Positions 370-37,234 of a stretch of DNA of 64,000 nt are shown here, in pieces. A program made the position numbers and the translations under genes. The first letter of the stretch is position 1. Every line of letters starts with the position of its first letter. Under the pieces are notes generated by a model, which searched no databases, was not told the origin of the DNA, and was given only the letters and a program-made list of their open reading frames with translations. Origin of the DNA: Ruditapes philippinarum (lineage: Eukaryota); NCBI RefSeq assembly GCF_026571515.1, contig NW_026855186.1, forward strand, positions 1 to 64,000, given 5' to 3'.

Positions 370-3300
370 CAAAGTATTTTATCCACGCTTTCGCCCAATT
401 CCGCTGGGGTGTGTTTCAAGAATACCCCGAAGAAGGTGAAAGCGAGTTTTATATATCAGTGACAAATGGGCGACCAGAGGCAATCAGATGTACCATACAG
501 CTTAGAGGACTGGTACAGAAAAATGATTCCGCCCACACTATATGTTACTTACGTAAGTATTTCCAGTTCATCATGGTCATCATATTCATCATTACCATCA
601 TCATATTTATCATATACACTGTACAATATAAATGATGATCATAATCATCATCATCACCACCACCACCATCACCATCATCATCATCGTCGTCGTCGTCAAT
701 AATATTCATCATATAAATCATGCTCATTATGATCATAACCATCATCATCTTCATAAAAAATCATGTCTTCATCATCATCATCATATTCATCATCATATTT
801 ATCATATTCAGCATAATCACCATGACTATCATCATAGTATGTGGTTGTTCATAGTCAGCCTCCAATTTATAATCATCATCTTGTTGCTGTGGTCATAATG
901 TAATCACAGCAACACAAATATTAGTAAACAGTTATTTAATGAACTCATTAAATTTTAGAAGATAACAACAGAGTAAAATGATTCTCAGGAATTTACAAAA
1001 GTGTTTCCAGTCACATATTGTCAAAAGTTTTATAGACCTAGTTGCAGGTTTATATACACAACTGTGTTTAGCTATCATCGTCTTTGGAATTTAATAAAGA
1101 ATTGAGAATAAAACTATTTACTTGAAAGCAATAAAAGAAAAAATACGATTAAGTTACCGGTAGAGCGAGTTGACATTTTTTTAATTCTATGTTTAAAACA
1201 ATTTTATTTAAGCATCTCAGGCACAGAGCGCTCACGTGGTGGCATCCGTCGACAATGTGACAGGCTTGTATGAACGCGAGTGTCTTTGGAGACCGTATCC
1301 TACCAGACAGAGAACAAAGGCATCTATAATGGATCACCAATATATCACTAATGTAACATATCTATATTTAATAATTGTGTTGATTATATTAAATAAGAAA
1401 AGAAATTAGATCAAAATAGTGATTTGGATTTTTAAATGGAAAAAAAAATTAAAAAATGAAAAACCAAATTGCAACCGGTAATTAATGTTATGATTGAATA
1501 AATGAAATACTCATGAAGCCCTAACATGCGATTTTTACTCGTAAAAATAATTCAATTCTAATTATAAATAGGAATATTCAATAGGCTGACTGTATCATTT
1601 GAGGACACTTATGTTTTAATTTCTCTTCCTTCAACTTCAGCTTTAACTTTAATGAATTACTTTTCAGCGTCACTGTTGTCATTTAGCTACTCTCTATCGT
1701 CCGTAACGACAAAGTTCCAATAACTACAACCGTACTCCGCAGACGATGTTAACATTTTTTTTTAATTTTCAAGTACCACACTGAAGTAAGATACATAGTA
1801 AGATACATAAACAATAGGTTTTCTAAAATACATGTGCCATGATTAATAAATATGATACTGAACATTTTCTGTCTTTGATATCTTTTAAGATCGAAACATT
1901 TTGCGACGACAACCATACGGACTATATGACAGAGCACAATTATGAAGCTCCGAGTAAACACAACAGACTGTGTGGACACAGAAGCACGTGGAATATAATT
2001 ACACAAACAGACGATTTTAGAAATGGAAGAAATCCTCCTCATGGTCGTCTAGACGCTCAACTAGAACCGACTTTTATTGTAATGAGAGCGCCTGGAAGAA
2101 AACGCAGGGCAGCCATATTGATAGACCCGTCTTTGACGAAGCAGGTGATATTTTATATATTCATGTTAACAAAATAAGCACCAAGAACTTTAAAAGTTTT
2201 TGCATTTTAAAGGGTATAAAGCTATATTTTATGAAATATTTTTATAAAATTTATCAACAGTAAAATTATTTTGTTCCCATAATCTTATAGTCGATTCTCA
2301 AAAAAGTTGTAACATAGAATGTCTCTCTTATTCAACTATGCAGATATTATGCTTCTATCCTAAGTAGGGTTTTGCCCGTTAAGCAAGCAGTTTAGGCAAG
2401 ATACTACCATTTTTCTTACATACAAGCATTTTTTAAGTATTTCTCTTCAAAATTCAAACAATATTTTTACCGCAGAAATATAGTTTTATACTCTTTAATA
2501 TTGCTTATCTAAAAATTGTCCATTAGTACCTGGTATAAACATTTAACCAAAACATGAACGGTATTTTGTATTGTTTAAGACAAAAGATAAAAATCTAAAG
2601 ATAGTATATATGATTTATTTCTATTAGCAAATGACATCAGTCAACTGATTTCTTAAAGTGAATGTAAACTAGTTTAAGGAATATAAAAAGTAAACGTATT
2701 TGCCTAATTGTAATCAGTTATATTTAAGACTGACATTCATCTGTTTATATTTTAGACTGACATTCATCTAACCATCGGCCATCTTAAGCAGGAATCATCC
2801 ATCCATGATATAGAGATAGTTCTAGTAAAACATGTGGACGGCAGGATATCTCACCAGCAACTTCAATCTGTTGAAAATATTGAATCATATCTGAAACACC
2901 ATTCACCTACATACAAAGTCAGTTTGACTGACCAAATTACACAGACAGTACAGGTAACTTGGTACAGGAAGAAAGGTTAAAGTAGCATGACTTTAGATTA
3001 TGCTAAAGTTTCCCGAATTTTTTTGAAAATGTATTTCAAAGTTAAAAAAATATCAAGTAACGAAAAAGAAGCAATTTACACAATACAAAAAGCAATCACC
3101 ACCCACGTAGATTATTAAGATAACTTCAAAATGATCGAAAATAACATTTACTGCGTTAGTAACGCAGTAGAAATATGGTTGTAAATACTGAAAAATTAAT
3201 CATTTATCGCACATTACATTTAAGTTATTACTTCAGTCTTGAATTTTTTTACTTTTTCTAAAATCTTGGAACATTTTTATCAGGTTTGATTTTAATGAAA

Positions 3301-6300
3301 TATTTTGGCTTATCTGGAGGTATGCATCTTTAAAATAACTAACCTTAGACATGACGTATAGTTGAAATAATTGCTGTGCACATATACATTTGTATTCATT
3401 CTGTACAACTGCCTATTTCGGAAAATTTTAAATACAACGGAAAAGAATTTGGAAATCTTACAAAACCTACAAATCCAACCGTCCCGGAACAACTATAATT
3501 ATTTTTTTTTTCCAGTCTAATGAATGAGACGTTCTGTATTTTTTTCATAAGAATATAAGAAGTGAATTTTGCGTGTTGAGTGCACACACAAATTGACTAT
3601 CTTAGCTTTTTTAAATCTTAATTCTTGTTCATATGTTTTCTTTATTAAAGATGATGGAAGAAGAGGCAAAAGAAAATGATACACACTTAATACTTGTCAC
3701 AGACAAAGAATCATCTGAACTCAAGAAAATGCTGACCGAGTCAAAACAGAAGGGTTTAAAATTCTCAGCAATATTAAACAAATATAACCCCATTGCTGGT
3801 AACCTAGGTAAATACATTTTTAACTTTCAAAACTGGTAAAAGTGATATTATACGAACATTTTTAATAATGCTATATATTGTAAATTAATACATATTTTTT
3901 AGCTTCAAACGAAAACGATTTTAATGAAATGAAACAAACGTAAATGCATCGTTGAATCATTTCTCTGAGAACAGCATCTGTGTTCAGCATCTGTGTTCGA
4001 GCGTCCGTTCGTCCGTCCGATAGTCCGTCCGTCCATCCGTCCGTTTTGGTTTAAACAATATGTATTTCTTCCTTGTTTACAATACAATATTACAAATTTA
4101 TAAAACGTATAAATGTATAAATTGCACTTATGATTGAGTACTAGTATCCATTTGTTTTGATTGGACTCTACAGCCTTCTTTTCAAGCACAAAGTGTTATA
4201 AACGATCGATTATTCAGCCTTCTTTACAAAGATTTGATTAAATAATAATAAAAACAATGATAATTATGATAATTATAATAATAATATAGAGGATATTTGT
4301 TTGTTTCAGTGTAAGATCGAAAAATATTTCACCGAGTGAACACCAGATGCAATATTTTCCACGAGTGGCGTAGCCACGAGTGAAAATATAATAGCTGGGG
4401 TTCACGAGTGAAATATTATTGATCTTACATGTAAAACAAACAAATTTTCTGTTTATTTCATGATTCTTTAACGATTTTAACACCATTTTACTGATTTTTG
4501 CCGCGTAACGTCATGCTGTTATCTTCATGACGTCATCAAATAATGACGTCACAATGTTGAAGCAAAATATAATTCCATGATTATTTTTAGATTTTAGATG
4601 TTTTTCAGCACAACGTTCGTAAATATTTACGAACTACAGTTATCACGTACATTTTTTTTATGATTGACTACATTTCCGCTGAAAAAAACATTCATTAATG
4701 ATAAATATTTTATTTTTACGCCAAATATAGTTCGGCTACTGTGAAATTATATTTGGTAATCATTACTGTGAAATTATCAGAATATAATTAATCGTTATAA
4801 TTCAGTAATCTACTGCAAAACATGTAATAAAATGATGTAAACAACAACTGCGATTTTGTATTTCAGACAATCTTCATACTGTAGGAAAGAAAGTTGGACA
4901 TACTCTTTTAGACAGGTTAAGGAATATCATCCTAGAAGAAACACCAAGAAAAATAGTTGTAAGTATACTTAATACATTTTATTTTTAAACTACAGTAAAA
5001 GTAATGAAAACATCAAAAAATGGCCGCTGAATGAGAAAAAGCAAATTTTTAACTGATTAGTGTTCATTTTTGAATTTCAAACAATGATGTTTTAAATTAT
5101 AGTCAGCAGATACTTTTCAAATAGCTTTATACACATACATAGCAAATACTATACTTTTACATTTCAGATTACCACGGATTCAATACATCTGTCAAACATG
5201 GTACCGGTTTCAAACTCTGTATTGATTGATCAAACATTGGTGAATCACGTGACATTCATATTTCACTATGACACTGACCAGCCGAACATAGATCTCAGAT
5301 CACCGTCGGATGTTATTTACGGTGTGGAGGACGATGTATGTACTATAGATTATGATCTAAGAGTGATTAGATTTCATCTGGAATTCACAGAGGTAAGGGT
5401 GATATGTATTTTTTTCTAAGCTTTGCAATCTTTCGTAGAAATTATCATTGTAACTGAAGAGTAATGGTTTTGGAAGTAATAAGAATTTAATATATATAAA
5501 CTTTGGATTTGAAACTAGTAGCATGTCGATAATTTTCCTGGTATAGTTTATTTTTTAAGGCCAATTCTTTCTTTCTAATGTTTAAACCAGACTTTTTTTC
5601 AAAAGTAGAGTATAACGAATAATATGTGCAAATAAACATGTGCTTACGGAATTGGCATATTTGCATTCTTATAGACAATATGTTTTATTAAAGGTAGGTA
5701 CATGGACATATACGGTGATGCAAACATCCCGGAGTTCTCAGAATGTGCGTGTTACAGTAATATCAGAAGAAGAACAAACCGAAATAGACCCAATTGTGTT
5801 GAAACATTCAGTAAAAACTGGCAAAGAATACGAAAACGTCATTTTACTACATGTTGATGCAATGCAAGGTTCGAGTCCATTAACAGGTTTAACAGTTGTG
5901 GCCAAGATAGAGACACCGGAAATGAAAGTAGAACATGTCACTTTACTGGACAACGGAGCAGGTAAATAAATCCCTTTAACATTCAAATAAACCAAATCCC
6001 TAACAGAGTTGCTTTAATCTTACCGCTTAACCTGCTAGAACCAAAAATAATTAAACTAAACATTCCATGGTAACTTAAACAATTTTCATATCTTTTGACA
6101 CTGCAAAACAGCGACATTTACCGAATTACACCTAGACTTTGAAAAATATGATGTTATATAAATATTTTTACATTTTATATTGTTGAAAAATTATGAAATA
6201 TTATAAATATACAACAAGTTTTCATCATCTTCCAAGTTACTTATTTGCACCAATCTGATTCAGGACTCGACATTTCTAAGAATGATGGAATATATTCACG

Positions 6301-8745
6301 TACATTTATTGCTCCAAGAATCAATGGATCATATCACGTGACTTACATGGTTACAAGTAACTCTAGAGGAGACACACAGAAAGGTAAAGCATCCACCAAA
6401 GACAAAAAGGTTGAGGTTTTTGATTTGTTTGATTTGTTTCCCTCTATATTTTTTCATAGTATATCTTTACACAAACATACAGTGTACAAAAAAGTTTCAA
6501 TCATTTAATATTTTACCAAATGCAAGAAGAAAAAACAAACTAATTCTGTGTGTTGAAAAATCAAAGTAAGTGTACACCACGGCTTTGTGTAGAAAGTAAT
6601 AAGCTGAAAATAAAGAAAAACGTTCCATTGTTATTGAAGGAATGTTAGAAATGGCAGAAATGGAAACAGAACCCATAGATCCCTATTCTGACCTTTCATT
6701 TGAAAACCACAAACATTGACATGTGTTCTTTTGTAAAGCTACAGTCTCACTTACATCCCGGCAGAGCCCCGGTAGACGTCCGGGGTGATCCGGGAACGAA
6801 CGGGGTACGACCGGGAACAACCGGGGTACGTCCGTAACTCTGCCGGCAACGTCCTGGATGATCCGGGATGATCCGGGAACATCCGGCATTCAAACCCGGA
6901 TGGAATAAAATATTTAATATCCCCGGGGTGGTCCGGGATGATCCGGGAAGGTATAGCTTTGCCGGCTTCATCCTTAGCTCTGCCGGGAACGACCGGGGTT
7001 ATACCGGGAAAGCACCGTAGCTCTGCCGGCACAAACCGGGGATGATCCGGGGTATGATATAGCCGGTAGAGCTACGGTCGAGCTACGGTAGAGCTACGGT
7101 AGAGCGCCGGTATATGCCGGCAGAGCCCCGGTAACTACAGGCAGAGCCCCGGAGGATAAAGGTAGAGCTACGGTTGATCCCGGTAGAGCCCCGGCAAAGC
7201 CCGGATCATTTCAAAAGAATAACGACAATTTGCGATGATTGCACTTGTTTGCATTAAAAGCCTTCCCATTTCCCTTCTATCCAGTATAGCATAAGAATTT
7301 TTCAGAAAATCATCATGAATTACTATTCTGAAATAATAAATATTATATTAGATAAAAATTATGTTTCAATGTTATCATTTTCGGGCGTTTTCAATCCACC
7401 GGGGTTCTATCGGGGCTCTGCCTGGATCGTCCTGGGCTCTGCCAGGGTTCTGCCTGGATCGACCGGGGCTCTGCCTGGGTCAACCGGGGCTCTTCCGGCG
7501 TCATCCGGGAACGACCGGGGAAGCACCGGCATGAACCGTAGCTTCACCTGGGCTCTGCCTGGATAATCCGGAGCGCATCCTGGGTGGTTAGTAGGGAACT
7601 ACGGAAGTGCTGCCGGGGTAAGTGTGACCGCAACAATAGTTTCATCCCGGATCGTCCCGGATCATCCCGGTTACTTACCGGGATGGTCCTGGGCACTGCC
7701 GGGAGTAAGTGAGACTGAGGCTTAAACAAATACTTTGTGATGAAATTCTTATTGAAATGCACTAATAATTTGACTTAGAAAGGTAAGGGTCATATAAAGA
7801 TCTATCCATTAACATCAAATTCAGTTAAATAATTTTGATATTTTACTTATATGTGATGTTCTTTATCAACAGAAAAAGGTTACACAAAGAAGGATAACAC
7901 TCATAGTCTAATTGAGAGCAATTTTCAGCGCCAAATACCAGCTGGTACAGTACACATCAGTTGTATAGGGATAAACGATATGCATGCCAAAGATCGTGAC
8001 GTCATACCTCCATCCAGGATGACCGACTTGGAAGCAGTAACGTTTATTCCATATAGGAACAGTATTGTACTAAAATGGACAACACCTGGTGATGACTTTG
8101 ATCATGGAAAACGTGAGTACTTCCCCTTTATATCAAGATCCCTCTTATTATACGATTTAATGTGTTTTAAGATATATTTCAAGTGAGTGTAAAGAAACCA
8201 CTCACGCGTTTTTAAAAACGGAATGGTTAACTTGTTAAGGACTTGTACTACGATAAAAGTAACTGCACTCATTAACATAATAACCACATATTTCTGATAG
8301 ATATACAAGTGTTTATATGGTATTATATCTTTTTGACTAAAGGAAAAGGAAAGAAATCAAATTATGTTAAACGGATATATATTAATCTTTAACTTCATTA
8401 TATCTATATTTATGCTTCAGTCATCATAGATATCTTTTTAGATATTCGAACAAGTACTTTAGTTGTATTATTTCAGCTTTCGGCTACCACCTTTATATAG
8501 GATATGACATCAATAACGTACGCTCGTTCCTAAAATATATTTCTACCGGAAGTTATGATGGCACCGGACATGTTGCAAATGAGACGATTGCTGGGAAATC
8601 AAGCGCCACAGAGACTGAGATCTTTTTGTGGGACGTCAAGGTGTTTGCTCGGACATATGTGTTCGCTGTGCGTGCGTTCGATGACAGTGGTAACATCGGG
8701 GATATTTCAAATGTTGTTACCACGACAACTACTTTAAGACCATAG
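370..8745 (+). CDS. CLCA: CLCA-like protein, paralog 1 (first exons lie upstream of the window); predicted catalytically inactive, no C-terminal TM
   Basis: Frame-consistent GT-AG exons: 370-552, 1213-1352, 1890-2144, 2756-2953, 3651-3807, 4867-4958, 5168-5392, 5694-5961, 6264-6383, 7873-8112, 8477-8745 (TAG). CLCA hallmarks: FRWGVFQEY, HNYEAPSKHNRLCGHRSTW, LLDNGAGLDISKNDGIYSR, PPSRMTDL, WTTPGDDFDHGK. Six exon sizes equal those of paralog 2 (183, 140, 255, 157, 225, 268). Confidence 0.92.
565..900. repeat. Degenerate (CAT/ATC)n trinucleotide low-complexity tract in intron
   Basis: Runs of catcatcat/caccaccac immediately after the donor site at 553. Confidence 0.9.
4286..4465. mobile_element. 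Palindromic end of a non-autonomous DNA element (possibly Crypton-type)
   Basis: Long imperfect hairpin centred on CACGAGTGGCGTAGCCACGAGTG; related copy in opposite orientation at 18930-19087. Superfamily assignment is tentative. Confidence 0.55.
6737..7722. mobile_element. Non-autonomous PIF/Harbinger-type MITE
   Basis: TIRs AGCTACAGTCTCACTTAC.. / ..GTAAGTGAGACTGAGGCT; 3-bp TAA on both flanks (6734-6736, 7723-7725); GC-rich arms packed with CCGGG/CCCGG motifs around an AT-rich middle. Confidence 0.8.
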
Positions 8746-11254: not shown

Positions 11255-14200
11255 ATGTCAAAGTTTTTGAGAATGGTTGTTTTTATTGTCGGAATATGCA
11301 TGCTCGCGCTATTTAAGCCAGCGTTTGGCCTAAGCCGACCATCAACTATTGTTTTAAAAAACAATGGTTTTACAAACGTCGTTGTTGCAATCCATGAAAG
11401 TGTTCCGGAGGATAAGACGCTCATTGATACATTAAAGGTATTAAAGTTTTTATTCTCCTCTCCTCATATTTAAACTCACTGTTCACATGGTAAAATCTAT
11501 GATTTTGATTTTGCATGAAATTGAATAATTTTCTTTTATACCGGTATGATATATATCATGTATACATATGATAAATTTATATGACGCTTATCTGAGGATT
11601 GGAATAGTGATGGAATACATAAATTAAAGGGGTAACTTAATTTATTTTGATAACATTCTTAGACTAAATTGTAAAACTGTTTTGTTGCTATTATTTTCGG
11701 TGGACCTAATAGTATATTGTCAGGATTAGAAATTTTATACGGGTGAGAAGAATTTATAGCCATCATACAAAAATATGACATTTACTTTTTAATAGGATGA
11801 AATGATAAAAGCATCAAAAATTCTTTATGTTGCTACAAAACAACGAGCATTTTTAAAAGAAATAAAAATCCTACTTCCTTCTACCTGGTCAAACGACGGC
11901 TCTTACCAGACGCCCACGAGCGAAAACTTAAGGTTTGCTGACGTCATTATAACAGATCCAATCCGAGGCAAGAGGAGCATACCACAAACAAGATCATATG
12001 ATGGTTGCGGTAAACAAGGAGTCCATGTTCTTTTGACTAAAGAATTTCTAACTACACCAAGAGCGGACCCGTATTTAAATAACCCTGGTGAGAAAAACAA
12101 ATCATTTGTTGACGCGGTTACATTATAGCGAAATTAAAGTGTTTTGTTAAAATTCTTATATGATCATTCAGAGCAGATCAGAACAGAACTTTTATTTCTT
12201 TTGATTTGTACATAGTACATCATCATATACGTCATAACTTCTGAGTAACAAAATCATTTTATGGCAATTATTAAGCCTTATTTAAATGAAAATGAACAAA
12301 TATAAAAAACCCTCCAAGATGAAAAATAAAAAAAAAAAAATTTTTTTTTATCGTTGAACATTATTTGAAATTTAAGTTCTTACAGCAATAGCTTTTTGTA
12401 ATTGCTAGTTTACATAGCTGTGCAACAGTGCAATGATTTTATACATAATTAGACTTACAAAATAATACCGATATCTTTTTAAGGCTAAGAATACTTGTAT
12501 AAGAATAAAAATGAAATTCTTCTTCTAAGTCTCTTATATTACAACATTGACAGTAGCGTATATTTCTCTGTATTCTAATTCAAGAACATCTTCAAGTTTG
12601 CATCCTTAATAAGTTGTTTGAAATGGTTCTTAATTTAGTAATTAGTCGTCTCAATTGTTCAGGCAGCATATCCAGCTAATCTTCGTTTTAAGAATTTATC
12701 ATATGCACACATTTATATCATTTGATTCATTAGAAACATATCATTCTTGTATGAAACATTCAATAATTCGCTGTCTAATTACAGGAATAAATTAAAGATT
12801 TTAAAATTAATTATATATTCCAAACATATGTAAAACCATAGTCATGCAAAGGTTTTTTTTTAAACATACGCTACAAGGTTATATAATCTTTCATGTCAAT
12901 CATTCAATGCTAGCTGATAAACTGAGTGTAAAATAATATTGTAAGTGTGCAACTTAAATCAACAATCTAGATCTCAATGCACACTAGTAAGCAGTATTCC
13001 TTACTGACAAAAAAAAACAAATATTAAATGTATCATTTCAATTTCATTTTCAAACAAATGAATCAAACAGCTGACATAATAACTCGGGATTTTGTAAAAA
13101 ATATTCTTTTTTTACAATTAAAAAGCAAAAACATTTAGCCCCGTTAACGCTTTACATGTTAAAGCTTTACATTTACCGTATTCCTCATTCAATATCATTA
13201 TTCTCGTATAACCAAAACGTATTTCTTAATTAACCCCTCTTTTCCCAAATACAAATTTTTAGCTTTATATAAATTTACCTTCTAATCCCCGATTTTAACA
13301 ATATTTATGCCATCTACCTGAATGCATTTGAAAATACTTGGGAGGTTTCACCTAATGTCACCATATCATCGGCAATTAAAACTATAAATGCTTAATTATC
13401 CGAACATTTTCAGCAAAGTTCTTTGTCCATGCTTTTGCACAATTTAGATGGGGAGTATTTCAAGAATACGCCGAAGAAGGGGAGAATGTTTTTTACATGT
13501 CGCCATCAGTTGGCCAACCAGAAGCCATAAGATGCACGATCATGATCCGAGGATTGGTACAAAAAAATGATGCTCGACACACAATATGCTACTCACGTAG
13601 GTTGAAAACATCCGCTAATTAGACACAATGTGCAATAGCTTATTAATATTATTAGGGATACAGTTTTATTTTTATTTAGCAATGTTGATAGACCAAAATA
13701 GCCTATATAAGAAAAAAACATAACAACTGATATCAAATGTATTCAGACAAAACGAAAGAAGTAACACTTTTTATTTGGCTTCTTTTGGTTTTTGTTATTG
13801 TTTAAAAAAAAGATATGTCACTTAACGTAGTGCTTTTGCTTTTCACAGACCTTCTAGCAGACAGACAACACGTAATTGCTTCGATAGATGATAAAACAGG
13901 TTTATATCACGCTGATTGTCAATGGAGACCATATCCAAACCATCAGCGAACAAAGGCATCGATAATGGACCATCAGTTTATTCAAGAGGTGTCGTAAAGT
14001 AATTTTAAATCATATAGTAATTAAGTAAAAGTATTAGATGTATGTTTTCTTTATAATATAGTGTTTATATGAGTGTCAAGGTTGTACCTCGAAAATCACA
14101 CAGAATGAAATACCAATCCTTTTAAACGTTCAATCAAACAACCTTTGTTCAATAATATCATATTTATTATTATTCGTTTATTTCAGTCTCTTTCTCACAT

Positions 14201-17200
14201 TTACAAATACTGTACATAAAAAATATACATTTAAAATACATGTAAGACCAATCAATTGAAGAGACATATGTAACTATTATCACAAACAATTTATTTACAT
14301 TTAAAACATATAAGAACTAGTATATTATTGTTAATCTTATTTATTTTTAAAATCCTATAAAAGAGAAGAAAAAGAAAAGAGAATATACCCCACACTACAA
14401 ATGGTTGTAAAATACGGATAATATGTTTGATTTAATGAAACATATTTAGAAATTAGATTAACAACTGTATTCTAGCAGTTGAGTAAAAACAGTTTAACCC
14501 AGGATAAAACCAGAATTGACTTATAGGATTAAGAAAAACAACAACAAAAAACTAATTTTACATCATAAGTACTCAATCCATATCCTGACACAAATGTGTA
14601 GCAGTATTAAAAAGTATTTTAAACTGCTTCAATATATATATTTATGTATATATATTTGTTCATTTTGTCGATACCGATTCGACTGAAAACTATATAAACA
14701 TCCTTAAATTCATGCGTAGCTTTTGTATAAAACATTTTCACATGCCAAACCTTTGTAAGTCTTAAAACTCTTTAAACGGCCATTGTCTAACACAGCTTGT
14801 TACATTCTGTGGAGACGATCCAAAAGACTACGCCACATTTCATAACAGCGAGGCTCCCAGTAAACATAACCGACTGTGTGGACATAAGAGTACTTGGGGA
14901 ATCATCACTGAAACCGATGATTTTAGGGGTGGTATTAACGCTCCAACGACTTTATCAGATGATCAAATTAAACCAACTTTTATCGTTATGAGAGCCACTT
15001 CACGGAAACGCCGCGCTGCCGTTTTAATCAACCCATCTTTATTGACAGAGGTATATTTTATTATCATGACCTTGAATATATATTTTATGAAATATGGATG
15101 AAAGATGAATGAATATAAATACTGGTATATCTGTGATTTTTTTTTTATGTTTCTTAATTCGACATTAAGTTAAGCATTAAGGCGGTGCTGTTTTACTATT
15201 TTATGATACATTTATACATTTTTAAAAACTATTAAAGATATACTCTTACTTAAAATGACTAAGCCACGTATGTATTCATTAATCTAAGTTTTTGTCCTTG
15301 TGAGAAAATTTTCGGTTAAATCCTTTTTACTAACCATGCTTTACTTTAATATTAAGTATCTCTTGCTAATAGATGTTACCTTCTGGGTGTTACAAAAACA
15401 ACTATTGTAGTTAGATATGATGTATTTTCTGATATTTGTGACAGGGGCCACTTTCAAACAAAATTGAACAAACACTCCAACATTTAGAACACGAAGCTTC
15501 AAAGACAGATTTAGAGTTATCAGTTCTTAGAGAGGAAATGACCAGTATGCAGGGAATATTTGATGAAGGCAATGGTCACAAGTTGTACAAGAGCAATACG
15601 TTAAATGAACAGGACCGGTTTGAACAAAACTTTGATAGTGTTAATAAGGTATTTACAACAAAAATATTGATGTTGTTACAACTTGATTCAATTGGATAAA
15701 ACTATTTTAAGAGACAGTTTATTTACTGATGTAGTCCAAAAATATGTATTTGACCAAGAAAGAAAATAAATGCATATTCAACTATGATGGTTTCGTATGT
15801 AAACAAGAATCAGATTAAAGTATTACCATCTTGCCGCAAACGATATTTAAACAGTATCTATTGTATAAATCAATTGTAAAATATGCCACTAGTAATTCCT
15901 TGGTAAGACGTTACACTTTATGACTTCAAAAAAAAATACAAATCATACCCGCAAATAAGCCCCCCCCCCCCCCCCCCCCATAAAAAAACAAAAAAACGAC
16001 AACAAAAAACAAACAGAAAAAGAAAACTCTATAAGAAGACAATTAAGAAGATAATGATAATAATAGAAATTGATTTTAGAACTATTTCTATCATAAAACA
16101 GAGATATGTGTATTGAACCTTATTTGTCCCCTTGAAGACAATTTTCCTTTTTTATATTTTTATAAAGACTATCTTTGATTTGGTAAAGATAGTTTTACTG
16201 TCAGATCTTCAAGAAATCAAATCATTTCTTTTTATTTTTTAATGTATTTCGTTCTTTGATTCTTGTACATGTAATTATCTGATCTGATTGATCATTTTCA
16301 TTTGATATAAAAAGACAGGAAATTGCACGAGATGGTTATAAAAATGAGAAATTTTGATAAAAGCAAATTGAACCTTTGATATGTAAAGATGAGCGTCACT
16401 CACAGTATGGAACAAAAGAATTGTATACGCGACACTTTGTTTAGCCATATCTTCTATTAAATTGCAAGATAACGCCCAGTGATACAGGTCAAAGTTATAG
16501 TGGCAAAAAGAACGGATTAGTTGTCTATTTTCAAAACAATCTCTACGTCTCTAAAATAAGATAAGATTCTGAAGTAGATTTTTTATTAAAGATTTATCAT
16601 CTTTTCTATGCTGTTTGAAAAGATATTTTTGAAACAACTTTTGGTGGTCCGTTTTTATCGGTAAATTGTGAAAGAAGAGTCTATTGAAGAAAAGATGATA
16701 AACATAGAAGGTGACCTTTATGTCCTTATTATTAAATGATCGGCTTAACAAATTCAATAAAGTTAAATGTAAAAAGAAAGACATTTTATCTCTGAATATA
16801 TCTTCAAAAAGAAACATAAGAGAAAAAAGCGAACAACTTGATGATTCAGTGACATTTCAAGTATTATATATTATCAATGTATTCAGCTTTTTAGACGCGA
16901 AAACACTTTGAATTTTGGTCAATATTTTAATGTGTTTTTCTTGTACTCACAAGGGGTACTATCAACAAAAAAAGTTATTTTACCTGCAACTGAAATACAC
17001 ATGAATCCTTAAATACTACAGACAAAACAGTTCATCTAGTTTAAAAAAACATCTTATTATTTAAACAGTATAAAAAGCCCATATTTTGATATGAAAGCAC
17101 ATGCATTTGCTAATTTTGATAATTGTAAAAATACTTAAATAAAACTAATTATTTAAATCATTTATTATGCTTGAGTAAGATTTTTAATACTTCATGCAGT

Positions 17201-20200
17201 TAATAACGTGACACTTTACTATAGGGCGTCAATAAAAGGTGATGTTTTTCACTTTAAACGGTTTTTTAATTTGGGTATATGATAAAGAGAATAATATATT
17301 TGTGTAGGGTCATTACTGAATTTATTGAATTCGTTCAATAAATTCAGTATTGAACTTACAGACGATCAATACCGTCTGAATATGAAAATTAAAATAAAAA
17401 TGGAGACGTACTACACTAACTAAAGTTTTAAAATAAATTAGCTATACCTATATCATAACATACTTTGTATGATTACAGAATAAAACTCTAGACGAAATAA
17501 ATGATGGCGATCTAGTTATTGTAACAGACACCTTGACTGAAAACATGAAGCAGATTCTGACTGACAAAAGTAAAAGTGGTTTGAAGGTTTCTGTGGTTTC
17601 TGGCGATCCGAACGAGATGACCAACGACCACCATGGTATATAGAAAAGTTACACAGAGATGCTTGTGACAATACCATACTACATGATACATTTGATAAAT
17701 AATGATAAAAAGTCACATTCATTTAAATAATATGATTGTTTTGCCTCTAATCCTCTACAGATTTTTGCTTACGTTTTTTGAACTTCATATAAAAATTGAC
17801 AGAAAGCAAGTTGAGGGCTTTAGCAGTTCAAAGCAAAATGTCAACTCCGTTCCTTCTGTTTGGGAAAAACAACAACAACAACAAAACATCTAGATCATTT
17901 TGGTATTATAGTATTTTATTTTATGCTTTTCAGTGGATTAATGATTTATCCGTAAAAATCATATTTGATAATTTCACAATGAAAATTATCAAAATATAAT
18001 TTCACACTTTTCAATGACGAAACTACTTTTTTAAGATTTTCCCCATTTGGTACCTCAAATTTATTTTTGCTGACTATTCCGACAATGTCAGGCTGTTTAA
18101 AGAAAAGCAAAGCTGAAATTGATAACTTATATGTCAAAAGTAATAAAAAGAAGAAAACTTACAGTAAGTTACTTCTATTCATTCAAATTACCAATCACCA
18201 AATATCGTCTCTTTAATTTTTTGTTTCATTTTTACAGTCTGAAAAATACATTCCTTCCACATGCAAAACTGCTCTTGATGACATTTGGGAATATTTAAGT
18301 ATCCTACGAGCAAAAACTGCCGTATGCTTTATGAAAACTTGAAAAGCAATGGCAGCTTTCAGTCGAAGAATATGTAAACATTTTTTACCCAGCGTTCGCA
18401 AGGCTTCCAAGTTTTCCAATTTCCTATCCACTTTTTTTGAATGTTTACACATCTGTCAACACTTATTTATTGTCTGTTACAATCCTCAAATAAGTTTTCT
18501 TTCTTTTAAAAAGGTGTATGACTAACAAATCCAAATGATATCCATCTGAATCAAACACAATTATTTTCCTCCAGTGAAATACACAACTTTAAAAATGGCG
18601 GCCGCTTACATTTAACGTAGCCAGGTCTAATATAAATTCGCAGTCAGTAACAGAAATATGGATGGATGGTTGGACTTTTTCTCCTACTAGAATTGTTTGT
18701 TTTTATTATATAAACATGCGATCAGACATGTTTTTTTTTAAATAAAATGAATACTATCAACACCATTTAACGTTGATTGTGGAACTTATTTTTCAGCCCA
18801 TGACTTCTTGTATTTAATGAGAAATTCGACTTTTTTGAGGCTCTAAATGGGGAAACAGATTTTAATATTAACGTAAATATTAAGGAAATTTCGTTTTAAC
18901 TTGTTTTTAAGCATAAAATAAAAAAAAAATGTTTGTTTGTTGTGTAAGAGGTAATTTTATTTCATCGAGTGAACTTTAAAAACAGTATTCTCACTCGTGG
19001 CTACGCCACTCGTGAGAATACTGTTTTTAAAGCCCACTCGATGAAATGAAATTTCATCTTACAAACAAACAAACAAATATCCTCTATGTAGTCGTGTATT
19101 CCCATTTCACATCATTTATTTCTTCTTTTAAAGTGTTTTTTCTTTTTTTATGTTTAATCTTAAAGATTTTCATTCCACAAATACTTTACTTTTCAGACTA
19201 GGAACGGAAGTGATTATCTTTTTTAAGTTACAGGTTAGGGAAGGTAAAATTATTTAATTAAAATGATAAGATTAGTTCATCTCATTACATGATCTGCGGA
19301 GCTTTTTAAATAATAGTTTTGTTTCAGAACATTTCAGCTTGCACCATACTGGAGGAGCTATAGGCCATACACTTTTAGATAGACTGAGAAATGTACTTTT
19401 GGTAGATAACGTAAAAACTGTATTGGTACGTTTTTCTTTTTACAACGTGATAAATACGTCATCTTGAAGAACAGATTCATCATTACTTTCCTAAATCCGA
19501 TTTAAATGATAATCAGTAAACTATTGAATATTACACGAGTGGTCATTTTGTAAACTATTGCAGGATTGTAATTTCGCTTTTCATTGGATAAACATCAGGT
19601 TTGAATATAATCTTTATACACGACTGCTCTCAACTTGTTAATTGGTTTCCGTTTTTTCTACAAATAAAGTAATTTTGCTGCATTTGTAATTTGTTATTAA
19701 TATGTATGACATGTTATATGGCATCGTATAAATTGATGTTTGCAATATAACCCTCACCTTGCGGGTTAAAAAACTAGTACGCATATAACCCTTTATCACG
19801 TGCCATGTAACATGGCACACAACATTTTAACTAACAATATACTAGTATATTATCATAAAACGAATTTAGGGACGTACAAGAAAGCAAGTATTTTGGGAGT
19901 GTTTTATACATCTTTGGGAGAATAAACCGTCGATGGTATAACTGGAAACATAAATTCTCTATCTCTCAAACCAAAAAAAAAACTACAACATATATTGACA
20001 TATATTGAAAGTCACTCCTTTTCATATGATAGGATCGATATATATTAAATCAACTCATTTACTCCTGATTTTTTATTGAACAATCAATCTCGTTACATGA
20101 CGCGTTTGGTCAATTTTAGCAATGACGTTATTTTCATTAATAACGTACGTTCCTCATTAACTGATTAGACTATTTTTTATCTAATTTATAGATAGGTCAA

Positions 20201-23200
20201 GAGGAAACTGAATTACGAGGCAATGAACCAGTTTCAAGAACAGTTGATATAGATAAAACTCTTGGAATGCAAATTTCATTCATCTTTCATTTTGAAGAAG
20301 AGCTGCCTTACATTCGTATAACATCACCTAATGGTACTCTCTACGGACCTGACTCAAACGTTTACTCTGTTGATGAAACTTCAAAAGCGATTCAGTTTTA
20401 TTTCCCGCACATACAGGTAAAACTCGCGTCTTTTACGACTTCTTTAGAATCAGAGACAATTTATTAACAACATGTATATAGATGTATGCCTCCATATTAG
20501 CCAAAATAGTTTAAGAAAATATTAAACTTTAGAAAACTGTACTAAGAGTTGAAAGAAAAGTAAACTGATTCATGTTATAATTAACGTGATTGTTTTGTGC
20601 GATTGATGATTTTGCAGTATTTTTCACCATATTTCTACTGCGTGACTAACAAATAAAGGCTATTTTTTGCACATTTTGACCTCCTTTTGTTCATTGACGT
20701 GGATTGTAAAGTGCCGTTTGCAATGTGTTAATTACTTTTCTTAGTTCACTTCACAATGTTTTACTTTTGTATACATTTTTGAAAAATTTCATGAAAATTA
20801 GCTGGAATATGGAGGCATGCTGCTTAGAATAAAAAAAATTATCTTCCTTTCATGGTAAAGACCACGCCTAATTTGCCTAGAGTTTATTTACATAGATCTT
20901 GTTCATTTTTTATTTTGATTTATCAATGTTTTTATTTACATAACTTTATCTTAGATAGTTTAATCGTTACAGGTTGGAACATGGACGTACACCTTGTCAC
21001 AATCATCGATGACGTCACAAAAAGTACGTGTTACAGTTATTTCTGAAAACATCGCTGAACACGAAGACCCGCTAGTCTTGCGGCAGTCTGTAAAATTTGC
21101 AGACGACACAAATACATCTGTGATTCTTCATGTTGACGCAACACAAGGGGCGAGTCCCTTGATAGGCTTTAATATCACAGCAAAGGTAGGGACGCCAGAT
21201 GGAACAGTGGATTACTTGACACTTCTAGATAATGGAGCAGGTACAATAGCTAAAGAATCCCGTGAAGTTTGAATACAATCTAAATACTAGTAGTTGATAA
21301 TCTTATTTATGCGATGACAATATTTTGTATGAAATTGAAGTTGCGTTCAAGATACTTTTATTATTGTCATAAAAGGTGAATAAAGAGGTTTGCATTTATA
21401 AAGAAGGTTTCATATTAAAACGTACAAATTGATACCTTCGCATAAATCTAATTTTGCCTTTTAAGGTTAACCTTTTGTACTGAATGTTTCAATATGCTCA
21501 AAACCGGTAAGAAGAAACTTTTGTTTTCCTTATTTATAGAGATAGATAAATGTAAGGTTTATGAAAGTAAACCTACATAATTTATGATATTTGAGATCTT
21601 AGATATTTTATTTTACCCAGTGATCAGTCACTAGCAGATATTGTGTGTTTTTTGTCGTAGGAGCTGATATAGCAAAGAACGATGGCATTTACTCGCGTAT
21701 TTACATAGCGCCAAAACTAAGTGGATCGTATCACGTGACATTCATAGTGTCGTCTGGTGGTTCTGGGTCTGTTTTCAGGAAAGAAGAAACAGCGTCAGTC
21801 GTTAATGATGGTATAAATATAAGTATTTCAATTTTTAGGGGAAAATATACTAGATATGATGCATACATAAAATCTCAAAAATGTAAAAAAGGTTCTGCAA
21901 TTATCTGCAGTTACACTCGACAAGGTCTGCTATTAAAGCCACTGCTGTTAGAAAGGTATCTAGAATAAAATATGAATGTCATCTACTCGCAAGAATTATT
22001 TTTAAAATCACGAAGTGCTCGATCTAAACATTCTATTTTCTTCTTCATTTTCTTAAGTGAACGCTACAGTTTAGACAAACAAAGCCAAAACACTAATTTC
22101 CAAGGCTGTCTCGTTTCACTGACTTCGCGCAGACTAGAAATACAAATCATAATATTTAGTCTAAGTTTGATACGTAAAGGATAATCTGTTGAGTATACTA
22201 GACCTAAATTTGGCTAAAGTACAGTTGTTTTCACGAATTGCCAAACATGAGCAAGAAGTGATTACCGGTATTCTGATTTGTTTGAAATGTTTCAGAGCTT
22301 AATCCAGTCAGAAAATCCGTTAGAAAGATACCATTAGACGGAAACATTCAAAGGCAAATTTCGGGTGGAACAATATTCTTGCGTTCCTCGAATCTTAATG
22401 ACCTCATCTTTGACGTCATAGCACCATCAAGAATTATTGATCTCAGAGCGGTGACGTATGTTCCATACAGAAAAACAATGGTGTTAGAATGGACAGCTCC
22501 CGGCGACGACCATGATCACGGAAAACGTAAATACAAAGATGTGGTTTAATTTTGATAAAATCAAGATACAAATCCTGCAAATTTTGTTGTATCATGCACA
22601 CAGTCTACTGTAATGATAAATCAAATACAATTTACACGTTATTCCATAATTCCAAAACTTTGCTTCAGGTTACATAATATATTTTTATAAGTTTTAGCTC
22701 ACCTGTCACAAAGTGACAGGATGAGCTTTTATGATCGCTTTTCGTCCGGCGTCCGTCCGTAAACTTTTACTTTAAATGACATCTCCTAATAAACCACTGA
22801 GCCAATTTCATCAAAACTTCACAGGAATGTTTCTTTGGTGGTCACCTTTAAAAATTGTTCAAAGAATTTAATTTCATGCAGAACTCTGGTTGCCATGGCA
22901 ACCGAAAGAAAAAACTTTAAATTTTTTCTTTTAAAAAATCCAAAGAGCTACAGCTTAGATATTTGGCATGAAACATCTTCTTGTGAGTGTCTACCAAGTT
23001 TGTTCAAATAAAAGCCCTGGGGTCAATATTGGCCCCGCCCCAGGGGGTCATTGATTTTTCCTATATGCATATATTAAAAACTTAAAAAATCTTCTTTTAG
23101 AGAACCTAAAGAGCTAGAGCTAAGATATTTAGCATGAAACATCTTCTAATGGGTGTCTACCAAGTTTGTTCAAATAAAAGCCCTGGGGTCAAAATTGGCC

Positions 23201-24381
23201 CCGCCCAGGGGGTCATTGATTTTCCTTATATGTGTATAGCAAAACTTAAAAATCTTCTTTGAAAAAACCCAAATAGCTAGAGTTTAGATATTAAGCATGA
23301 AACATCTTCTAGTAAGTGTCTACAAAGTTTGTTCAAATAAAAGCCCTGGGGTCAAAACTGGCCCGCCCCTGGGATGTCATTGTTTTTAACTATATGTGTA
23401 TAGTAAAAACTTAAAAAATCTTCTTTTAAAGAACCCAATGAGCTAGAACTTAGATGTTTAGCATGAAACATCTTCTTATGGGTGTCTACCAAGTTTGTTC
23501 AAATAAAAGCCCTTGGGTTAAAATTGGCCCTGCAGGGTGGGGGGGGGGAGGTCATTGTTTTTTCATTATATGTGTGTAGTAAAAATTTAACATCATGAAA
23601 CATTTTCTAAGGTGTGTCTTCAAAGTTTGTTCAAATACAATCCCTGGGGTTTAAACTGGCCCCGCTCCGGGGGCCTATATACAGGTGAGCGACCTCAGGG
23701 CCATCATGGCCCTCTTGTATATTATAATCTTGACATGTAAAAATGTCCCTGAGCTTCTTGGCGTTAGATCTTAGTAAAACATTTGGAGGCTCGATCAAAT
23801 ATGTATGGCACGTTTTATATATGAGCCGCGTCATGACAAAACCAACATAGTGGATTTGCGACCAGCATGGATCCGGACCAGCCTGCGCATCCGCGCAGTC
23901 TGATCAGGATCCATGCTGTTCGCCTACAAACCATATTAACAAGTAGATAAACTGAAAGTGAACAGCATGGATCCTGATCAGACTGCGCTGATGCGCAGGC
24001 TGGTCTGGATCCATGCTGGTCGCAAACGCACTATGTTGGTTTTGTCATGTCGCGGCTCAATTATAATTCATCACCAGATTTTACCATCGTCATTTAGATC
24101 TAGTGTTTTAGATCCTGTTTTACTTTACAGCTGATATCTACGAATTTGTTGTCGGTTGTGGGGTCAAGGACGTTCGTCTTTTTTTGAACTATCTCTCCTC
24201 TGGTGATTACAAAGGTCAAGGTAACGTGATACAAGAAACATTCAACGCACGTGCAAATGGAACTGAAATTGAAACGTTTCTATGGAGTACAGTTGGCAAT
24301 GACAAACCGTATATATTTGCTATTCGTGCTGTTGATAGGTTTGGCAACAAAGGCCAATTTTCAAACCTTGTCACAGCCTAA
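11255..24381 (+). CDS. CLCA: CLCA-like protein, paralog 2, complete (~878 aa, signal peptide, no C-terminal TM); predicted catalytically inactive
   Basis: 13 exons: 11255-11437, 11796-12087, 13414-13596, 13849-13988, 14796-15050, 15445-15648, 17479-17635, 19328-19425, 20192-20416, 20973-21240, 21661-21810, 22296-22526, 24131-24381; total 2637 nt, open frame. N-terminus MSKFLRMVVFIVGICMLALFKPAFG (signal), then LKNNGFTNVVVAIHESVPED, ILLPSTW, GCGKQG, FRWGVFQEY, DNGAGADIAKNDGIYSR and FnIII-like WTAPGDDHDHGK. Confidence 0.95.
18930..19087. mobile_element. Palindromic end of a non-autonomous DNA element, same class as 4286-4465
   Basis: Hairpin centred on CACTCGTGGCTACGCCACTCGTG, ending CAAACAAATATCCTCT (reverse complement of the 4288 start). 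Confidence 0.55.
20484..20830. mobile_element. Old MITE-like repeat
   Basis: Inverted ends ATGCCTCCATATT / AATATGGAGGCAT; interior and right end are similar to ~41490-41695. Confidence 0.5.
22692..23718 (+). mobile_element. Non-autonomous Helentron-associated (HINE/pearl-like) element with internal ~165-bp tandem array
   Basis: 5' TTTTAGCTCACCTG plus hairpin CTGTCAC-aaa-GTGACAG and (GTCC)n microsatellite; ~4.5 units each containing AAGTTTGTTCAAATAAAAGCCCTGGGGTC; 3' subterminal inverted repeat CAGGTGAGC and terminal hairpin AGGGCCATCATGGCCCT; no TSD. Confidence 0.8.
23822..24059. mobile_element. Palindromic (fold-back) MITE, ~238 bp
   Basis: ~100-bp near-perfect inverted arms TGAGCCGCGTCATGACAAAACCAACATAGTG.. 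/ ..CACTATGTTGGTTTTGTCATGTCGCGGCTCA; second copy at 42661. Confidence 0.9.
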
Positions 24382-26557: not shown

Positions 26558-28439
26558 TTACTTAACTGATGAAATATCATAAACTACAATGTTGTAATCG
26601 ATCAATCTGCTAATACATATCTTAGTCATTTGTTGATTACAACAAACTGACAGTATTCCTTTCTGTACAGGTGCAGAAATCTTTTCCATCAGCAATGATG
26701 AAATACCCCCTTTTCTACTATCATCTTTTATGACCTCTCCCATCAGCTTGCCATCAGGTGTAAACTGTAAAACATTATTGGAGCCACATCCAGATACCAG
26801 CACACCACCTGCTTCGGTGAGATAACAACATGTAGCCCCCTTTAATTGTCTATCATTAAATAATGAAATAACCTGACCATTGTTGTCCAGTACTATCAGT
26901 CCATTATTGTAGTCAGCAACATAAATCCTAGTAGCATCCTGACTTACAGCTAAACTGTGTATGTCAGAGAAAAGCTTACGTCCTGACTGATCCTTACTGA
27001 ACTGATGAAGCTTCCTACCAGACAATGTATACATATATACATATGTCTGACTGTCTGAAATATATAAATTTTTGTTTGCATATGCAAGGCCATGACATAC
27101 AAAATCAGTGTTAAACCAATTAACTGTTTTCATTTGTCTTCCTAGTAGAGAAATGAAGTGAATTTCCTTTTTTGATTGAACAGTAACTGCTATTTGTGTG
27201 TATTTGATCAAACACACTTGCCATGGCTTTCCAGGTAGATCATAGTAGTCTGTGCCAGTATAGTTTGACTGTGTAGCCGTTTAAGCTTCCTGTTGTGATG
27301 ATCAGCAAGAATAATTGTACCATCTTCCATACAGCAAACACTTCTGATATTGCAAAATTCTTTATCAGACATAACTTTTACATTATATGATTGTTCTCCT
27401 TTAATATTCAATAGATTGTCAACAGTCTTTATAGATTTCTCTGATAGTGTACCTAGGGTTTTCTTTTGTTCCAGCTGTGTAAGAATTGCCCTATTAGGTT
27501 GAAAATCTACGTCTTCCACAATACTTTTTAATTTTATATCTGATATATATTTGTTGGCAACATTTGCCGTATTCTCTGCCATCTTAACATACACAAACAT
27601 TTCAGATTGATTTGTGTTTGTAGATGCTAATTTATCATTAGCTGATGTGATCATGGACTTGTTTGCCTGTAGTTGTTTTATTACAACGTCTATCTTGTCC
27701 TCAATACATTTGACTTTACTTTCTATCTCATCGATAGAACTGTTCTCCAGCTTGTCAAGAAGTTCATTGATTTCTTGACGGAATTGTCTGATATCAGCCA
27801 ATATTTCTACTTTCCTCTTTAGCAGCGTTTGTTTATCTTGTTTAAATCTATCAGCTTGTTTTGTTAGAACCTTGGCTATTTCCTTGAGTTTTGTTTGAAC
27901 TTCTCTTTGTGAATCTAGGTAATTGTGTGTTTTGAGAAATTCTGGTATGTAGAATGTATCCTTGCATAATCTGAAAAGTAAGATCAGACAGTTTATACAC
28001 ATGAGGCTATGGGATGACTGAGGAGATATTATGTTATTTATTGTAACATTTTTAAATTGAACATTTCAGATATGTTTGTAAAAAAAATAATACGTATATA
28101 TATTATTTTACCTATGATCAACTGCCATACATGTAGAACATCCAACATTATCATGGTTCTGACAGTACATATCAATATGTTTATGACTGTGTCTGTCACA
28201 TCTCTCTGCCGGTGCCCTGCGCACACCTTCGCTTGTTCTTGACGTAACTTGAGATTTATCCAACACCTTGTGACAAGCTAATACAGGTACTTCATTGTGA
28301 ACTTGAACACAACTTCTACAAAAGTAATCATGACAATCTACACTTCAGAGTTTTTGCCTTTATTTTTACACATTGAACATAGTACATCAAATATTTCATC
28401 TGATAGAGTATCCATATTTGTTTGTCCGCCAGTAGCCAT
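26558..28439 (-). pseudogene. RING-less TRIM-like gene (two B-boxes, coiled coil, NHL-like beta-propeller), frameshifted
   Basis: Exon 1 28439-28112: MATGG..CSMCKNKGKNSE [frameshift at ~28343] VDCHDYFCRSCVQVH..CDRHSHKHIDMYCQNHDNVGCSTCMAVDHR. GT-AG intron 28111-27971. Exon 2 27970-26558: coiled coil then propeller repeats, with a second frameshift at ~27265 joining ORFs 27208-28002 and 26558-27217. Confidence 0.85.
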
Positions 28440-36088: not shown

Positions 36089-37234
36089 ATGGAGAATAAC
36101 ACATCATCAATTTATAATGCATCAGATTTTAATGCGAATAGAACTTACGCGGATATTCCGGACTGGGCAAATATATCTGGAATTATTTTTATGACCCTAG
36201 TGACGATAGCTGGAATTGCCGGGAATAGCCTAATCATAGTAGTGCAGTTGAAAACCCGCGACAAAACAAGTACGGACTTTCTAGTTTTAGCGATGGCGGC
36301 TTTTGAGCTTTATTGCTCTGGAATCAACAACAGTCTAAGTGTGCTTCGTAGTTTCAGAATTATTTGGACATCGATTGTTTCCTCGTCGGTGTGCTGTTTT
36401 GAAACATTTTCTATTTATCTAACAAGTATATCAACAACATTTCTGCTCACGGCAACAGCTTTGGACCGATATATTCAAACTTGTAAACCACTAAACAGTT
36501 ATTATTCCAAATCAAACGCTAAATGGATCTGTTTGACCTTGGTTGTATCAAGTGTTATTCTTTCAGCACCGAGCATTGGAATCATTACAGCAGACATGGA
36601 AAGCCTTGACTGTGTAAGGAATATGGAAAATATTGTACTAGCAACTATTTTCGATCTATTTCTGTCAGCTGCATTCCTTGCAATGTTTGTCATTGTCGTC
36701 GTTTGTTATTCGAAAGTCACGATAATGTTACGTAGACGTCGCCGTCAGAAAGAGATGGTAACAAACACGTGCACAAGTGGGACGTATCCTTTAGCTGTAC
36801 GCCAGCAATTGAAAATTCCTAGAAACAAAGTATGCCCAACATCGACACAAGAGACTCTCGAGAACTGCCCGAGTACAGACGTGATGGAAGATGACACAAA
36901 CAACGCGCATGAATTACATTCTCAAGAGGTGAGTCAGGTATCGGCTGCAAGCCAAACAACTGGTCAAGCGGCTATCCGAAAGAACCGGTCTGAACGGAAG
37001 ATTCTGAACCGAACAACCCTGATCATGTTCCTAATAACAACGATCTATATTTTAACCTGGCTGATTCACTTCATTGTCGTCTGGATTGTGCCACCTATGA
37101 CCTCTAGTGGCAGAGCAGTTCTTCACCTTGTAGCGGGCCTGTACAGAATAAATTGTATGACGAATGCGATATTCTATATAACAATGAGTTCGAGATTTAG
37201 ACAGAATGCCAAAAAGCTTTTTCGTCGGCATTAG
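36089..37234 (+). CDS. Orphan rhodopsin-class (class A) GPCR, uninterrupted CDS, 381 aa
   Basis: Seven hydrophobic segments, N-terminal N-glycosylation sequons, TM1 GN, TM3 DRY, TM5 CYSKV, TM7 NAIFY, helix 8 SSRFR. First ATG at 36089; probable 5'UTR intron 35982-36056. Confidence 0.93.
   Translation: MENNTSSIYNASDFNANRTYADIPDWANISGIIFMTLVTIAGIAGNSLIIVVQLKTRDKTSTDFLVLAMAAFELYCSGINNSLSVLRSFRIIWTSIVSSSVCCFETFSIYLTSISTTFLLTATALDRYIQTCKPLNSYYSKSNAKWICLTLVVSSVILSAPSIGIITADMESLDCVRNMENIVLATIFDLFLSAAFLAMFVIVVVCYSKVTIMLRRRRRQKEMVTNTCTSGTYPLAVRQQLKIPRNKVCPTSTQETLENCPSTDVMEDDTNNAHELHSQEVSQVSAASQTTGQAAIRKNRSERKILNRTTLIMFLITTIYILTWLIHFIVVWIVPPMTSSGRAVLHLVAGLYRINCMTNAIFYITMSSRFRQNAKKLFRRH

Follow-up and report, generated by a model that had tools for sequence, protein, structure and literature searches.

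Two tandem CLCA genes of Ruditapes philippinarum are members of a bivalve-wide pseudo-protease orthogroup

Two CLCA genes that stand in tandem in the clam Ruditapes philippinarum are members of a bivalve-wide pseudo-protease CLCA orthogroup, and both are intact and under purifying selection. The genes, whose database names are those of ordinary channel regulators, lie in a stretch of 64,000 nucleotides (the window) with which contig C3673 begins. The pair is present a second time on contig C6101, colinear with the window copy and 87-96% identical through introns and flanks. We treated the two contigs as haplotypes; were they recent duplicates, the conclusion would be unchanged.

Catalytic motif and gene models of the two paralogs

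An initial annotation, made from the letters of the window, had proposed that the HExxH..DE motif of CLCA proteases is replaced by HAFAQ..QE in both paralogs. This is borne out: the exon translations that it quoted are right (370-552, KYFIHAFAQFRWGVFQEY...; 13414-13596, KFFVHAFAQFRWGVFQEY...), both exons match the Pfam CLCA family (PF08434, positions 128-182) above cut-off, and both read HAFAQFRWGVFQEY at the motif (Table 1). Its codons were also quoted correctly, and the many synonymous differences that it described amount to 7 of the 14 motif codons, all of them silent. In the cryo-EM structure of CLCA1, His156, His160 and Asp167 bind zinc and Glu157 is the base (10.1101/2025.10.18.683246), a numbering with which the ligand assignment of the annotation agrees. 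The clam paralogs keep His156 and have lost the catalytic Glu and two of the three zinc ligands: HAFAQ lacks the general-base Glu of HExxH in both, and the third-ligand position 167 is Gln, a residue found there in none of the 104 active-type rows of our alignment. With Glu157, His160 and Asp167 lost, the sequences make it very likely that the proteins are non-catalytic, as had been claimed. Proteolysis is in all likelihood absent from the clam dead CLCAs, because a single Glu-to-Gln change suffices to abolish cleavage of CLCA2 (PMC10669480) and two ligands are gone here as well. A self-cleavage-loop pattern of our own was poor even in active CLCAs, matching only 9 of the 55 active rows, beside 1 of the 13 dead ones.

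The dead motif is not an assembly error, because it is found on both haplotypes and in other bivalves. Restoration of the active site in RNA was rejected: the spliced RNA contig (run X6, record 9) differs from motif exon 13414-13596 by one letter in 184, and the Ala-to-Glu change alone would need two. The frames are intact, as had been stated, with 13 GT-AG exons in paralog 2 and 11 exons of paralog 1 in the window, the rest being on C6101. Exons 1-2 of paralog 1 fall before the contig start; the second haplotype (G000:C6101) has them, in a gene that is complete there (872 aa, 13 exons) and has a signal-peptide-like start. The paralog 2 protein has a hydrophobic N-terminus and terminates after the FnIII domain. 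CLCA_N (PF08434) is recognised in the second-haplotype proteins P0003 and P0007 with 224 and 177 bits (cut-off 25.6).

Table 1. Features of the window, with positions counted from its first letter
Feature	Position	Strand	Details
Paralog 1, exons 3-13	370..8745	+	Splice model, open frame, all GT-AG; exons 370-552, 1213-1352, 1890-2144, 2756-2953, 3651-3807, 4867-4958, 5168-5392, 5694-5961, 6264-6383, 7873-8112, 8477-8745
Paralog 1, dead catalytic motif	384..425	+	HAFAQFRWGVFQEY; Glu157>Ala, His160>Gln, Asp167>Gln; Glu168 kept
Paralog 1, putative structural zinc ligands and Met-turn	Glu168 420, Cys187 489, Cys250 1902, His255 1935; Met238 1329	+	Equivalents of the paralog 2 residues
Paralog 1, RKRR	2097..2108	+	Predicted furin-type site at the protease/VWA junction
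Paralog 1, intron insertion	6740-7720		About 1 kb, GC-rich, short tandem units
Paralog 2, 13 GT-AG exons	11255..24381	+	878 aa; splice model and RNA joints; exons 11255-11437, 11796-12087, 13414-13596, 13849-13988, 14796-15050, 15445-15648, 17479-17635, 19328-19425, 20192-20416, 20973-21240, 21661-21810, 22296-22526, 24131-24381
Paralog 2, dead catalytic motif	13428..13469	+	HAFAQFRWGVFQEY; translation; exon also in spliced RNA contig
Paralog 2, putative structural zinc ligands and Met-turn	13464..14843	+	Glu168 13464, Cys187 13533, Cys250 14808, His255 14841; Met238 13965; ligand identities from the CLCA1 preprint (10.1101/2025.10.18.683246)
Paralog 2, RKRR (residues 336-339)	15003..15014	+	Predicted furin-type site
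Paralog 2, degenerate VWA remnant	15015..19425	+	About 160 aa, no DxSxS MIDAS; faint profile score; VWA-like ortholog model; Atlas lead 0.87
Paralog 2, repeats in last intron	22910-23530 and 23800-24060		166-bp tandem repeat and dispersed repeat
Coiled-coil and NHL-repeat (TRIM-like) candidate	26561-28065	-	Overlapping frames of 285 and 240 aa; NHL match for the second
Rhodopsin-family GPCR paralogs	36092-37231 and 46626-47798	+	Two single-exon genes (Pfam 7tm_1)
Multi-exon gene with kinase domain at its end	50096-56738	-	N-terminal part dynamin-like by reading of the translation

Several other features of the locus were recorded. The insertion in paralog 1 is missing from the C6101 haplotype and is probably a non-autonomous mobile element, and the repeats in the last intron of paralog 2 show a very high RNA depth that originates elsewhere in the genome. 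Downstream of the CLCA pair, the two overlapping minus-strand frames look like one TRIM-like gene with a frameshift. Upstream of paralog 1, on the second haplotype, lies a tandem gene cluster (G000:C6101:227000-269000, L005-L009) whose members we take, from the likeness of their translations, to be TLDc and IFI44-like GTPase genes.

Phylogenetic extent, selection and expression

Homolog searches together with a cluster-representative search gave 159 proteins of at least 300 aa, and the 141 that span the domain were tabulated: 104 are active-type, 14 carry the HA/SxAQ/E type and 23 are otherwise substituted or cut short. Relatives of the clam genes were found in Mercenaria, Mactra, Mya, Dreissena, Sinanodonta, Potamilus, scallops, oysters and Solemya. 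In our careful tree (39 rows, unrooted and drawn at midpoint; a tree of 79 rows was a quick one), a branch with support 98/93 separates the 18 bivalve rows from all others, and the branching follows bivalve phylogeny, Solemya first and then oysters and scallops (95/89) versus unionids and clams (100/99). The bivalve clade nests in a mollusc group that contains active CLCAs (95/94), and the nearest rows outside it are gastropod CLCAs, mostly with intact HExxH. Three of these gastropod orthologs, nearest on the tree (Haliotis P0019, Gigantopelta P0030 and Batillaria P0023), show about 43% identity over the domain, and they differ from the bivalve members by an intact HExxH..DE, an intact MIDAS and, in the full-length ones, a C-terminal membrane segment. 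Paralog 2 of the window pairs with Mercenaria (100/99), and the duplication therefore predates that split.

The initial annotation had proposed a conserved non-catalytic subfamily. In trees with active CLCAs this part stands, the dead lineage spanning the bivalves, a class about 500 million years old, but the exact HAFAQ..QE is confined to the clam group (Imparidentia) and other motifs are found elsewhere: KQxxR..D in Solemya, HQxxT..Q in scallops, HExxT..Q/E in oysters, HAxxQ/E..Q/H in unionids and HA/SxxQ..Q in clams. His160 is missing in all 18 bivalve rows. A Lottia member has HQxxR..E, Phe153 and no MIDAS, and its position as sister to the bivalve clade is not rejected (AU p 0.22); the loss may accordingly predate the bivalves. 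Four unionid proteins (P0012, P0014, P0018 and P0028), with adjacent locus tags, are mini-CLCAs of 470-616 aa without the VWA and beta-sheet-rich domains; P0028 has His at position 167.

Elsewhere in the R. philippinarum genome, 22 other stretches hold 18 motif exons, some of them haplotype pairs, of which 17 read HExxH..[D/N]E and one RExxH. Among otherwise active-type copies, a CLCA paralog with its first ligand substituted (REWGH..DE) lies on the minus strand of G000:C2502, near position 7444 of locus L056. No active ortholog of the orthogroup was found in this genome among the best-scoring search candidates.

Selection was measured between the two haplotypes and within the paralog pair. 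Between haplotypes, the protease domain of paralog 2 shows 27 synonymous and 9 non-synonymous changes (dN/dS 0.085, 309 codons) and that of paralog 1 shows 11 and 4 (0.091, 176 codons). The C-terminal part gives 0.24-0.30 and the VWA remnant 0.14-0.52 on few changes, the value of 0.52 being that of paralog 2. Between the paralogs, pS is about 0.79 throughout and thus saturated, while pN rises from 0.14 for the motif exon to 0.19-0.21 for the protease domain and 0.46 for the VWA remnant; the pooled Fisher p that accompanies these pS/pN and haplotype figures is 2e-16. Mean identity over 28 pairs is 70% in the dead domain, 24% in the VWA remnant and 43% in the C-terminal part. The dead protease domain is the most constrained part of the protein.

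Paralog 2 is spliced in RNA. In run X6, the listed pieces of one 2043-nt contig cover exons 1, 2, 3 and 5, and at least 10 of the 12 introns are seen as joints, nine with GT..AG and one with two differing acceptor letters; run X1, which we take by guess to be RNA, agrees with X6 on this splicing. RNA contigs of paralog 1 cover its last two exons, the earlier exons lying outside the stretch compared. Expression is not general, since two raw-read RNA runs (4% and 6% of reads used) gave an exon depth below 3 and no splice joints.

The genes had been described as old and selected, not as decaying pseudogenes, and open frames, spliced RNA, a single bivalve clade and a dN/dS of about 0.09 in the protease domain, not near 1, all agree with this. 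The VWA is clearly degenerating (95-160 aa in clams, gone in unionids, with the dN/dS of paralog 2 at 0.52 on few changes), as it might in pseudogenes or relaxed duplicates in slow decay, but the probability of such decay is negligible: the 13-exon frames are open on both haplotypes, RNA is spliced, the genes are retained across bivalves, and decay is refuted for the protease domain by its low dN/dS.

Putative structural zinc site, proposed rebuilding of the cleft and the VWA junction

The lost catalytic site contrasts with a putative second zinc site, as the residues Glu168, Cys187, Cys250 and His255, together with Met238, are present in 18 of 18 bivalve rows. Position 153, which lines the S1' pocket in CLCA1, is Phe or Tyr in all 18 bivalve rows vs none of the 104 active CLCAs. 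Residues that are fixed in 10 non-redundant heteroconch rows and absent from four active gastropod orthologs occupy 5 of 25 cleft positions (121, 146, 171, 185 and 225) vs 8 of 240 others (p 0.004), and plain conservation of cleft columns is modestly raised (15/25 vs 88/240, p 0.03); the rows are related, so that these Fisher p values overstate independence. Human cleft numbers were transferred by way of a single row of mammalian type (P0143); its cysteines and Met coincide with the published numbers, and the transfer is unsure around 145-147. We think it fairly probable that the former substrate cleft was rebuilt a single time and has since stayed fixed because it binds a partner; a fold that had lost its catalytic zinc site would thus have been kept for binding through the rebuilt cleft.

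The cleft might instead hold a rebuilt metal site, made of His156 with the nearby Asp239/His240 and Tyr169, in a protein that is still an enzyme, perhaps with another substrate. His156 is indeed present in 17 of 18 rows, Asp239 in 18 and His240 in 13, and oysters keep Glu157, but Solemya has Lys156 and Gln240, unionids have Tyr240, the clam genes have no general base, and position 153 is filled by Phe/Tyr. Asp239 is moreover not a compensating gain, because it is already found in 5 of 6 gastropod relatives, with Asp-His in an active one, and we regard a surviving enzyme as very improbable.

A further possibility is that the dead protein acts as a decoy or regulator, joining CLCA oligomers or shielding substrate and so tuning mucus proteolysis. 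Active-type paralogs are many in the genome (17 of the 18 motif exons), precursors of human CLCA2 form complexes and cleave in trans, with E165Q still binding the wild type (PMC10669480), and roles of that sort have been proposed for inactive zincins (PMC3650047). The active clam paralogs are, however, distant (at most 42% on exon 5) and in other clades, and the cleft is remodelled, not kept substrate-like, with the VWA lost, so that this role appears rather improbable.

At the junction of the protease and VWA domains, both paralogs read RKRR. R-x-[KR]-R in a secreted precursor is the furin/proprotein-convertase consensus, and this motif follows the last strand of the protease domain in 17 of 18 bivalve rows vs 7 of 122 others, its middle letters varying within the consensus (RKRR, RRKR, RKKR, RRRR) and one scallop row being without it. 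The basic patch predates catalytic loss, because R-x-R-R is found in two of seven gastropod relatives, and HExxH is intact in both of them. A convertase cut after RKRR, predicted after residue 339 of paralog 2, is reasonably likely and would give a pseudo-protease domain of 314 aa (36 kDa) and a C-terminal part of 539 aa (60 kDa). In AlphaFold models of two orthologs (Mercenaria and a unionid; pLDDT 87, pTM 0.88), the unionid basic site (323-326) borders a disordered linker (pLDDT<50) and the Mercenaria site stands at a strand start with pLDDT 84, and may therefore be poorly exposed.

In these models the protease domain has high pLDDT, and the lists of the fold searches (Foldseek and VIA) are filled by the C-terminal domains, which align to FnIII and jelly-roll chains with Z 10-12 (a C-terminal beta-sandwich and FnIII-like domains), no zincin being among the matches listed. 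A search for solved structures by sequence gave none for P0005, and a canonical row gave only the CLCA1 VWA (6PYO).

The VWA domain is decayed throughout the orthogroup. MIDAS is found in 0 of 18 bivalve rows vs 117 of 122 others (after removal of three misaligned rows), and a CLCA VWA profile gave 29 bits for an oyster and 13 for paralog 1, the other eight tested scoring at or below shuffle level (top 6). The remnant measures 160 aa in Ruditapes, 123 in Dreissena and 95 in Mya, and in unionids the VWA is deleted along with most of the next domain. Pfam VWA has no match in the paralog 2 remnant, and comparing the remnant profile against profile gave nothing significant (probability 0.6). The Mercenaria model does fold like a VWA there, but with a bias, since the underlying alignment contains many intact VWA domains. 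A second basic cluster occurs inside the decayed VWA of P0170, P0021, P0025 and P0169 (RVRRERR in Solemya, RKLRNRR in an oyster) and could, if cut, excise the VWA. The C-terminal hydrophobic segment, present in five full-length gastropod rows and the tested scallop, is absent in ten heteroconch rows and the oyster, and clam and unionid members have no C-terminal membrane anchor.

Proposed function and place among known CLCA proteins

On these sequence features, we lean slightly towards the orthogroup being secreted non-enzymatic binding proteins in which a predicted furin-type cut replaces self-cleavage. CLCA1 cleaves MUC2 (PMC6851300; 10.1101/2025.10.18.683246), and by analogy the partner may, tentatively and at somewhat less than even chance, be a mucin or other glycoprotein in the filter-feeding mucus of gill and pallial organs, the clam proteins being a binding or cross-linking counterpart of mucin-cutting CLCA1. 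One gill cell type of an oyster has a gene called Clca3a1 as its marker (10.64898/2026.05.15.723513); the link of this gene to the oyster orthologs P0025/P0169 is a shared automatic name, and thus a lead for the mucus role only. As the dead motif differs among bivalve groups, the binding ligand need not be shared. A Dreissena proteomic spot called 'CLCA4' (PMC11036304) was not used, because the protein it matches is a Mercenaria protein of 103 kDa and pI 4.57 and not P0005 (99.2 kDa, pI 5.8).

The proteins could also be non-catalytic structural components of another secretion, such as shell or periostracum matrix, byssus or the digestive style. Their secreted architecture with FnIII-like and beta-sandwich domains, and the presence of the lineage in every sampled bivalve group, would suit such a role, but our literature search found no CLCA placed in bivalve shell matrix, and we consider it improbable. 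Returning to secreted binding proteins, the boldest version, which we hold to be unlikely as a whole, starts from a CLCA that cleaved itself and was anchored in the membrane. No later than the origin of bivalves, it would have been turned into a secreted ligand of two parts, with the dead domain serving as a module that binds mucins or glycans and is freed by furin in place of self-cleavage. The VWA would have been dismantled stepwise, and the protein would belong, so far unrecognised, to the core of the mucus with which bivalves sort food particles and microbes.

With human CLCA1 (one of the 'CLCAsins', 10.1101/2025.10.18.683246; PF08434), the clam genes agree in the order of their domains (metallohydrolase, VWA position, beta-sheet-rich, inhibitory and FnIII-like domains), and they share with it the residues of the second zinc site, the Met-turn, Cys125/267, Cys210/223, the acidic ion loop of the inhibitory domain and the secretion signal. 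Unlike CLCA1, the bivalve members have no catalytic zinc or general base, Phe/Tyr at S1', no MIDAS, a degenerate or deleted VWA and R-x-[KR]-R at the protease/VWA junction, and the clam and unionid members are without a membrane anchor. Non-catalytic ADAMs, named in PMC3650047, and pseudoproteases likewise have a metzincin fold without catalysis, are secreted or at the surface and likely bind; the ADAMs are however a different family, and in bivalve CLCAs the dead domain itself appears to be the binding surface, the adhesion VWA being lost.

Substituted CLCA sites are a known phenomenon: published work gives HExxH for 72% of the family and about five independent losses (PMC3650047), and its supplement lists the Lottia HQxxR (HQWAR) member (Lenart et al. 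2013), which falls in the same mollusc group as the bivalve genes. In the searched parts of PMC3650047 nothing is said on how a dead orthogroup is conserved, on decay of the VWA or on a convertase site, and no bivalve term is found in them or in the supplement text searched, which also has no Crassostrea, mollus or HAF. The literature covered, mainly outside subscription journals, gave no inactive bivalve CLCA and no furin processing of a CLCA; the supplementary alignment of 10.1101/2025.10.18.683246 might include such sequences.

It is an open question of the family which CLCA functions depend on proteolysis and which on binding alone, and for this question the orthogroup is a natural experiment across the bivalve class. 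Its anatomy makes the proposed reading testable, with the named cleft residues as targets, and the unionid variant of about 610 aa (protease, inhibitory and FnIII domains) may express more easily than truncated CLCA1, which is unstable (10.1101/2025.10.18.683246). Catalytic zinc and MIDAS are lost and the protease domain is still the most constrained part, which points to a non-enzymatic role of the CLCA protease fold.
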